Of a stretch of DNA of 64,000 bases, positions 21,702 to 22,058 are shown in pieces. Under the pieces are notes generated by a model. The model ran no database searches. It was not told the origin of the DNA and saw only the letters and a program-made list of their open reading frames with translations. This DNA is from Escherichia coli (GTDB lineage Bacteria; Pseudomonadota; Gammaproteobacteria; Enterobacterales; Enterobacteriaceae). The stretch is from assembly GCF_003334385.1 (NCBI RefSeq), contig NZ_QOWN01000012.1. One strand, given 5' to 3'. The position numbers were made by a program, and so were the translations under genes. The number at the start of each line of letters is the position of its first letter. The first letter of the stretch is position 1.

Positions 21702-21723
21702 GATATTCCTTTCTGCTTATCTC

Positions 21724-21749
21724 AAGGCCCGCTCTGCGGGTCTTTTTTT
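21724..21749 (+). terminator. intrinsic terminator after fbaA
   Basis: ggcccgc tct gcgggtc followed by ttttttt. Confidence 0.6.
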
Positions 21750-21765
21750 CGCCAAAAGCAAAATT

Positions 21766-21866
21766 GCCTGATGCGCTACGCTTATCAGGCCTACACGTAT
21801 CCTGCAATATATTGAATTTGCAGGTTTTTGTAGGCCGGATAAGGCGTTCACGCCGCATCCGGCATG
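21766..21866. repeat. BIME: two REP units in inverted orientation flanking an AT-rich palindrome
   Basis: REP cores at about 21766-21794 and 21831-21865; internal palindrome cctgcaatatattgaatttgcagg. Confidence 0.6.
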
Positions 21867-21891
21867 ACAAAGCGCACATTGATATCTGTCT

Positions 21892-21917
21892 GAGCCCCGC
21901 TCTGCGGGGATTTTTTC
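21892..21917 (+). terminator. second terminator-like hairpin, near-duplicate of the fbaA terminator
   Basis: ccccgc tct gcgggg followed by tttttt, then the same ttttttcgccaaaagcaa tail as the copy at 21726-21762. Confidence 0.4.
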
Positions 21918-22058
21918 GCCAAAAGCAAGGTGATTCAGATGAGAAATCTGTGATCTATTTGGCAAAATTATGCTTTATTGTTTACCCTTGTCAGACTGCC
22001 CGTCATAAGGCGGCGGAGTGTATTTCTCCATTTTGAGTCAGTTGAAAAGGAATATTGA

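Follow-up and report, generated by a model that had tools for sequence, protein, structure and literature searches.

A BIME-1 element flanked by a duplicated terminator between fbaA and mscS of Escherichia coli, with a probable origin in target-duplicating insertion

The spacer between fbaA and mscS of Escherichia coli carries two directly repeated copies of an intrinsic terminator with a BIME-1 (RIP-type) element between them. This arrangement probably arose through gain of the element at the fbaA terminator, accompanied by duplication of the target, and was then altered in copy number by recombination. Under this model, the BIME-1 would have been gained in an early Escherichia lineage and would have duplicated a 36- to 37-bp target consisting of the hairpin, the T-run, and a 12-nt native tail, generating the order T1-BIME-T2. 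The upstream copy would have kept the ancestral sequence and the downstream copy would have drifted, still retaining a GC hairpin and a U-tract in E. coli. The direct repeats, lying 167 bp apart, would then permit unequal or slipped recombination that changes the number of units, of which there are none in ~31% of E. coli genomes, one in ~69% (the state in the window, the whole 64,000-nt stretch that was analyzed), and two in Escherichia sp. E1V33. The original prediction, a local duplication tied to insertion of a BIME at the fbaA terminator, is supported by empty and filled alleles that differ by 167 bp and can be refined: the element is a BIME-1/RIP, the duplication looks like a target duplication made at insertion, and the unit varies in copy number (0, 1, or 2 extra). 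This explains why the interval separating a core glycolytic operon from mscS commonly differs in length from strain to strain. The more general link among BIME-1, hairpin duplication, and the termini of the Yersinia element YPAL is of broader interest than the locus itself.

Anatomy of the fbaA-mscS spacer

The region around positions 21400 to 22400 of the window, which contains the spacer, is 100% identical to K-12-type genomes. According to the RefSeq annotation of identical sequence, fbaA, encoding the class II fructose-bisphosphate aldolase, occupies 20622..21701 on the plus strand; its translation ends in FQELNAIDVL, and its TAA stop codon is at 21699-21701. The gene for the small-conductance mechanosensitive channel, mscS (286 amino acids), begins with an ATG at 22059 and extends to 22919 on the same strand. 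Both repeat copies also read on the plus strand. Copy 1 (21725..21761; AGGCCCGCTCTGCGGGTCTTTTTTTCGCCAAAAGCAA) comprises terminator T1 and its tail, with a hairpin at 21724-21744 (9 pairs, loop TCT), a T-run at 21743-21749, and the tail CGCCAAAAGCAA at 21750-21761. Copy 2 (21893..21928; AGCCCCGCTCTGCGGGGATTTTTTCGCCAAAAGCAA) comprises terminator T2 and its tail, with the hairpin CCCCGC-TCT-GCGGGG at 21895-21909, an A followed by six T residues at 21910-21916, and the same 12-nt tail at 21917-21928. The copies are in direct orientation with a spacing of 167 to 168 nt and are alike at 33 of 37 aligned positions. Their final 18 nt (TTTTTTCGCCAAAAGCAA) are 100% identical, and the differences, three substitutions and one T, are confined to the hairpin part. 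Relative to T1, which is of the ancestral type, T2 has a C-G pair in place of a G.U pair (both sides having changed), one disrupted outer pair, and one T fewer. The local alignment of the two copies scored 52; when the 357-nt spacer was shuffled 300 times with its dinucleotides preserved, scores were 17.4 +/- 2.2 and never exceeded 28. The terminator repeat is real and far beyond chance. The two near-identical direct units with a BIME between them had been predicted to within one base of these positions, and comparison of the spacer with itself, which had been proposed as a check, confirmed that the units share the tail and not the hairpin alone.

The remaining, mscS-proximal part of the spacer (21929..22058, plus strand) is present in both long and short alleles according to their alignment and is partly conserved across genera, with the common blocks TGTGATC..TTTGGCAA and TTGTTTACCCTT. 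It is presumed to be the promoter and leader region of mscS. A promoter scan of the spacer returned no plus-strand promoter call.

The element between the copies, a BIME-1 or RIP (also RIB) at 21762..21894 on the plus strand, was delimited by its inverted repeats, the Y and Z1 consensus sequences, the L word, and comparison of outer motifs. It consists of AAT and then the Y REP (21765-21793), an L linker of 36 nt (21794-21829), the Z1 REP (21830-21864), and a 30-nt right outer motif, TGACAAAGCGCACATTGATATCTGTCTGAG (21865-21894), which is present in a diverged form. The REP pair is inverted, with arms at 21781-21795 and 21829-21843 and a Z1 palindrome at 21834-21863, and both REPs match their consensus sequences within the mismatch limits that were applied to 15 loci. 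The 18-nt L word, CTGCAATATATTGAATTT, is exact at fbaA and at other BIME-1 loci (at least 15 others). Within the linker, an IHF-like site (CAATATATTGAAT, 21805-21817) reads on the minus strand as ATTCAATATATTG and matches the consensus WATCAANNNNTTR at 12 of 13 positions, making it a candidate IHF site. The element has a predicted RNA fold of -51.6 kcal/mol (z, -5.0).

Ton-Hoang et al. describe BIME-1 as a single-copy y + L + z1 arrangement whose L part contains an IHF site (PMC3333891). The fbaA element has the inverted Y and Z1 REPs, carries an IHF-like site close to the consensus in its conserved L linker, is extragenic and present as a single copy 60 nt past the fbaA stop at the 3' end of the transcription unit, and, like other elements known as BIME-1, RIP, or RIB, is present or absent depending on the E. 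coli strain. It departs from the BIME-1 norm in that it is flanked by a 36- to 37-nt direct repeat that includes the whole terminator and in that it lacks the canonical left outer motif of 25 nt, whose slot is taken up by the T-run and tail of copy 1 and retains only a GCAAAATT-like remnant.

The sole Rfam match above threshold in the spacer was ES036 (CssrF sRNA), which falls on the L linker (21787-21829, minus strand) with 47.3 bits against a gathering score of 37.6; naRNA4 and AS-pc01 were below threshold, and the subthreshold naRNA4/CssrE match falls on the Z1 REP. Judged by sequence, the ES036 family appears to model the repeat linker found at many loci. Nothing in the Rfam search suggests a separate RNA gene in the fbaA spacer, and ES036/CssrF corresponds here to the L linker of the BIME-1. 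Other REP or BIME sequences in the window lie at ~3929-3950, 9030-9190, and 49375-49560; they are a single REP beside a terminator-like hairpin and two multi-REP clusters without an L linker, none of the BIME-1 type.

Alleles of the spacer and their ancestry

The fbaA-mscS locus was found in all 5,426 complete E. coli genomes, and 3,720 of them carry the long allele. The unit of presence and absence is 167 bp (21762..21928, plus strand) and consists of the BIME-1 plus one copy of the terminator and tail; empty and filled alleles differ by exactly this length, with clean junctions. In the two short alleles that were aligned (strain 9 and APEC O2-211), fbaA is followed by a copy-1-type hairpin, T7, CGCCAAAAGCAA, and GGTGAT. 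Because the short allele appeared in 12 of 40 and 18 of 60 evenly sampled rows, we infer that the remaining ~31% of the 5,426 genomes mostly carry this 167-bp-shorter allele, with one terminator and no BIME. The sampled E. coli rows contained only spans of +0 and +167 bp, and 59 E. coli genomes have some other disruption at the locus. With the E1V33 spacer as the query, the best matches in E. coli all had the two-terminator span, and none of the 5,426 genomes appears to carry a three-terminator allele. Strains with the long allele include K-12, O157:H7, O26, O111, and O78, and those with the short allele include O25:H4, APEC O2-211, and O145:H28. The short allele of O145:H28 strain 16003 is 99.6% identical to that of APEC O2-211, and O157:H7 has the long allele; this contrast between the two serotypes may reflect recombination at the locus or a loss that occurred independently. 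Bachellier reportedly described whole BIME-1 "excision" in 1997.

A scan with MscS covered 80 species representatives, among which there was no E. albertii, E. fergusonii, or Salmonella. In about 45 species (Citrobacter, Klebsiella, Kluyvera, Enterobacter, Kosakonia, Pluralibacter, and others), the spacer measures 174 to 194 nt and contains one terminator and no BIME, and two further Escherichia lineages (L004 and L005) also have short spacers, of 190 to 191 nt. The single-terminator allele that the original prediction had suggested seeking in related strains therefore exists both within E. coli and well outside it. Since these ~45 other species share a single-terminator spacer of ~190 nt, the ancestral locus had one terminator, and the duplication is a derived condition. 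Copy 1 has the sequence kept in single-terminator alleles and is the conserved copy.

The tail is likewise native to the locus. An alternative in which the tail CGCCAAAAGCAA is a remnant of the left outer motif GACAAACGCAAAA, with the short allele as a deletion scar, was rejected as the principal interpretation, since a collinear GCCAxxxCAA is found equally far from the T-run of the terminator in other genera. The similarity of tail and left outer motif at 8 of 9 positions is possibly a junction microhomology.

Two other Escherichia lineages carry the element. E. whittamii (L007) has a long allele with the same junctions as E. coli; its copy 2 (~1325-1365) has lost the hairpin (GCCGCCAGGATAGAGGGG; predicted fold, -7.7 kcal/mol; z, +0.4) and keeps the T-run and tail exactly (GGGGATTTTTTCGCCAAAAGCAA). 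Escherichia sp. E1V33 (L006, 974-1500) has a 527-nt spacer of the form T-BIME-T-BIME-T with two near-identical 168-nt units. The spacer lengths of 190 (short), 357 (long), and 527 nt (E1V33) rise in steps of 167 to 170 nt, that is, in whole units. Because E. whittamii and E1V33 share the junctions and the absence of the left outer motif, sequence comparison argues for a single origin of the fbaA BIME-1. After the gain, expansion and precise losses probably took place through recombination within the identical 18-nt block. The short allele of E. coli could be either retained from the ancestor or re-created by deletion; with two short and two long lineages outside E. coli, any scenario would require several events, and loss between direct repeats would be the easier one.

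In having a unit of ~170 bp between direct repeats, with 0, 1, or 2 extra units according to lineage, the locus resembles multicopy BIME arrays and short tandem units, an example of the latter being the 178-bp repeats downstream of tyrT. It differs from multicopy BIME arrays in that the recombining repeat is the duplicated terminator and not the REPs. BIME-1 is reported to occur as single copies (PMC3333891), and E1V33 represents a tandem expansion of an element class so described. Adjacency of the two genes is not universal in the family: the 1.5 kb upstream of mscS contains no fbaA at ~25 of the 80 species loci, and in Citrobacter amalonaticus (L011, 293-1375) a gene for a LysR-type regulator lies upstream of mscS instead. 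Intestinirhabdus alba (L028) and Entomohabitans teleogrylli (L037) have spacers of 405 and 494 nt with an unrelated insert after the fbaA terminator, and insertions seem to have entered the fbaA-mscS spacer repeatedly.

Flanks of other BIME-1 loci and possible routes of insertion

A metagenome scan with the L word yielded ~120 stretches, from which 15 distinct BIME-1 loci with usable flanks were obtained. At each locus, the 85 nt to the left of the Y REP were aligned in direct orientation with the 95 nt to the right of the Z1 REP. The scores were 52 at fbaA, 30 downstream of fruA, 30 at metE-ysgA, 30 at katE-chbG, 25 at gldA, and 21 at the locus L095, against a mean of 14.0 (sd, 2.5; 99th percentile, 21.9; maximum, 25) for 210 mismatched locus pairs (Mann-Whitney p = 0.014), and a second detection scheme gave the same result. 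At 5 to 6 of the 15 sampled loci, a locus-specific GC hairpin of 20 to 25 nt recurs as a direct repeat immediately beyond each end of the element, and direct alignments of the flanks scored at least as high as inverted alignments. The left hairpin copy reaches up to the edge of the outer motif, 22 to 26 nt short of the Y REP, and the right copy begins 28 to 31 nt past Z1. Full-length elements carry the left outer motif cTGAGAyTGATGACAAACGCAAAAyT and the right outer motif TGAACAAAGCGCACTTTGTCAACAATCTGAG, which are inverted repeats of each other. The metE locus offers both states: the empty site in E. coli has one hairpin, CCGGGTGGTAATACCACCCGG, followed by TCTTTTC, and the filled site (L099) has hairpin, full BIME-1, hairpin, and TTTTT. 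Searches for empty sites downstream of fruA and at katE-chbG returned, as the best match per genome, a BIME elsewhere that outranked the short flanks.

The fbaA locus is the longest case, its repeat covering the T-run and the 12-nt tail as well, and the additional 25-nt stretch sits exactly in the slot of the missing left outer motif; at gldA the left outer motif is also truncated. The signature of target duplication is therefore one of variable length (~19 to 37 nt), centered on hairpins, with a variable left end. On the sequences compared, gain of a BIME-1 seems usually to leave a duplicated terminator hairpin behind, and because this signature flanks other BIME-1 copies, the fbaA repeat looks like a target duplication at insertion and not like an unrelated tandem duplication. 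If hairpin duplication is the normal footprint of BIME-1, of which K-12 has about 70 to 80 copies, it would provide a sequence signature for dating and counting insertions.

We know of no enzyme or mechanism for a 36-bp target duplication. The fbaA repeat exceeds those at other loci by ~16 nt and the element lacks its left outer motif, which makes a second event such as gene conversion possible. A canonical BIME-1 would in that case have inserted between the hairpin and the T-run, duplicating the ~20-nt hairpin, and a short conversion between the hairpin copies would then have carried the T-run and tail from the 3' side of copy 2 into the left outer motif, overwriting ~21 nt of the latter, restoring a U-tract after T1 and extending the repeat to 37 nt. 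At canonical loci, 22 to 26 nt separate the end of the left hairpin from the Y REP, and TGAGAYTGATGACAAACGCAAAAYT comes after the hairpin; the 25-nt slot at fbaA holds TCTTTTTTTCGCCAAAAGCAAAATT. With agreement at 8 of 9 positions, CAAAAGCAA and CAAACGCAA (CAAA(A/C)GCAA) could have fixed the point where a conversion tract ended. On the right, the boundary is of the canonical kind, copy 2 beginning 28 nt past Z1, and gldA offers a parallel in its truncated left outer motif. We nevertheless consider this two-step course rather unlikely, because a canonical left outer motif was found at fbaA in no sampled Escherichia lineage, the equal slot length could be coincidence, and one event combining a longer target duplication with a truncated element needs fewer steps. 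Less probable still is a copy-choice event, in which the nascent strand would leave the fbaA spacer at CAAAAGCAA, copy a BIME-1 elsewhere from CAAACGCAA, and return upstream of the hairpin at ATCT..AGG, copying the terminator and tail again. Microhomology at both junctions (native CGCCAAAAGCAA and element GACAAACGCAA; element AATCTGAG and native TATCTCAAGG) would fit such a switch, as would a duplication length and left-end truncation that differ by locus, unlike the product of a transposase with a fixed stagger; the microhomologies are, however, short and partly AT rich, and the metE element is full length with no obvious junction homology. The single-event, two-step, and copy-choice routes are not mutually exclusive.

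Two further explanations separate the repeat from the insertion. A tandem duplication of the terminator that preceded, and was independent of, a BIME landing later between the copies is very improbable: slippage does yield tandem terminators and REPs and BIMEs often lie near terminators, but no terminator-terminator allele without a BIME was found in the evenly sampled rows of the 5,426 E. coli genomes or in four other Escherichia lineages, a flanking repeat is also present at other BIME-1 loci, and the metE empty site has a single hairpin. It is also doubtful that the BIME and T2 form a regulatory device, a putative 5' attenuator of mscS of the kind proposed for leaders that contain BIMEs, in which the resemblance of T2 to T1 is secondary, although the E. 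coli T2 hairpin has been kept through change on both sides (G.U to C-G). The module is missing from ~31% of E. coli genomes and from nearly all other genera, its T2 hairpin is destroyed in E. whittamii, and the conserved 130 nt next to mscS lie downstream of T2, so that mscS transcripts probably start after it. Absence from a third of strains and decay in E. whittamii argue against an essential regulatory role, and equally against the proposal of Naville and Gautheret that a BIME acts as an mscS "attenuator" (PMC2965389).

Insertion with target duplication, the reading preferred here, has its closest precedent in YPAL/RU-2 of Yersinia, a 168-bp element with target duplications of 3 to 26 bp that span or adjoin dyad symmetry, as De Gregorio 2006 is summarized by Delihas (PMC2229807). 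With the YPAL sequence taken from PMC2759123 (Table 1b), the termini of full-length BIME-1 elements such as metE L099 match those of YPAL at 14 of 15 positions on the left (AGAYTGCTGACAAAC) and 17 of 21 on the right (CGKGCACTTTGYCAAYAAYCT). Both elements are ~150 to 170 nt long, have near-identical termini and variable target duplications at dyad symmetries, and are found as empty and filled sites among strains. As in YPAL-type insertion, the empty site has one target copy and the filled site two at both fbaA and metE, and the duplicated segment at fbaA is a dyad, the terminator hairpin. YPAL differs from BIME-1 in its unrelated core, which has neither a Y/Z1 REP pair nor an L/IHF linker; its duplications are also shorter than the 36 to 37 bp at fbaA, and the fbaA copy has the right-hand terminus alone, in diverged form. 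The fbaA case is an ordinary repeat-insertion polymorphism, the presence or absence of a BIME-1 with a YPAL-like target duplication that happened to double a terminator. The 103-nt "RU-3" of Delihas corresponds to the BIME-1 core (Z1-L-Y).

REP and BIME sequences have been described as lacking target duplications or MITE signatures (PMC3333891, PMC3184786), and reviews class them apart from MITEs such as YPAL (PMC3184786, PMC3733652). The RAYT/IS200-IS605-type Y1 transposases credited with their mobility leave no direct repeats (PMC3333891), whereas a 36- to 37-nt direct repeat flanks the element at fbaA, and for that reason the event appears unlike simple peel-and-paste insertion. We tentatively suggest, as a possibility held at somewhat less than even weight, that E. 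coli-type BIME-1/RIP elements are MITEs of the YPAL kind, sharing the terminal inverted repeats of YPAL around another, REP-bearing core. Rather than arising by RAYT-type transposition, they would enter the hairpins of intrinsic terminators through a structure-directed or copy-choice event in which the whole hairpin (a variable 19 to 37 bp) is duplicated and the left end is often truncated. If so, each BIME-1 insertion would move or double a terminator and leave a recombination-prone unit, BIME-1 would be linked to the Yersinia YPAL, and at least this class of BIME would spread by a route other than the Y1-transposase mechanism without duplication. The flanking repeats of BIME-1 may already have been described in older literature (Bachellier 1997, De Gregorio 2006, Boccard & Prentki 1993).

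Predicted effects on transcription

T1 and T2 both scored as terminator-like, and each has a GC-rich hairpin directly before a U-tract. T1 is predicted to fold into a 9-pair stem of -14.1 kcal/mol (z, -4.4) followed by U7, and T2 into an all-GC stem of 6 pairs and -11.6 kcal/mol followed by A and U6, so the tandem terminators expected from the original prediction are borne out at the level of predicted folds. A search of the accessible literature found no paper joining fbaA, mscS, and a terminator. T1 may still be the main terminator; transcripts reading through it would include the BIME RNA, with its very stable predicted fold, and would terminate at T2. In this way T2 may stand as an additional block separating mscS from the highly expressed fbaA operon, providing extra insulation for mscS. 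Strains would then be expected to differ in read-through and in 3'-UTR stability, with two terminators and a REP pair in K-12-like strains versus one terminator in ST131- and APEC-like strains.

REP structures have been described as mRNA stabilizers and BIMEs as transcription attenuators (PMC3333891; PMC2965389). The arrangement at fbaA resembles tandem intrinsic terminators and REP-stabilized 3' ends in that two hairpin and U-tract signals follow one another behind a highly expressed gene and enclose REP structures. It differs from such tandem terminators in that T2 is a copy of T1 made by repeat insertion; a third of strains do without this copy, and in E. whittamii it has decayed.
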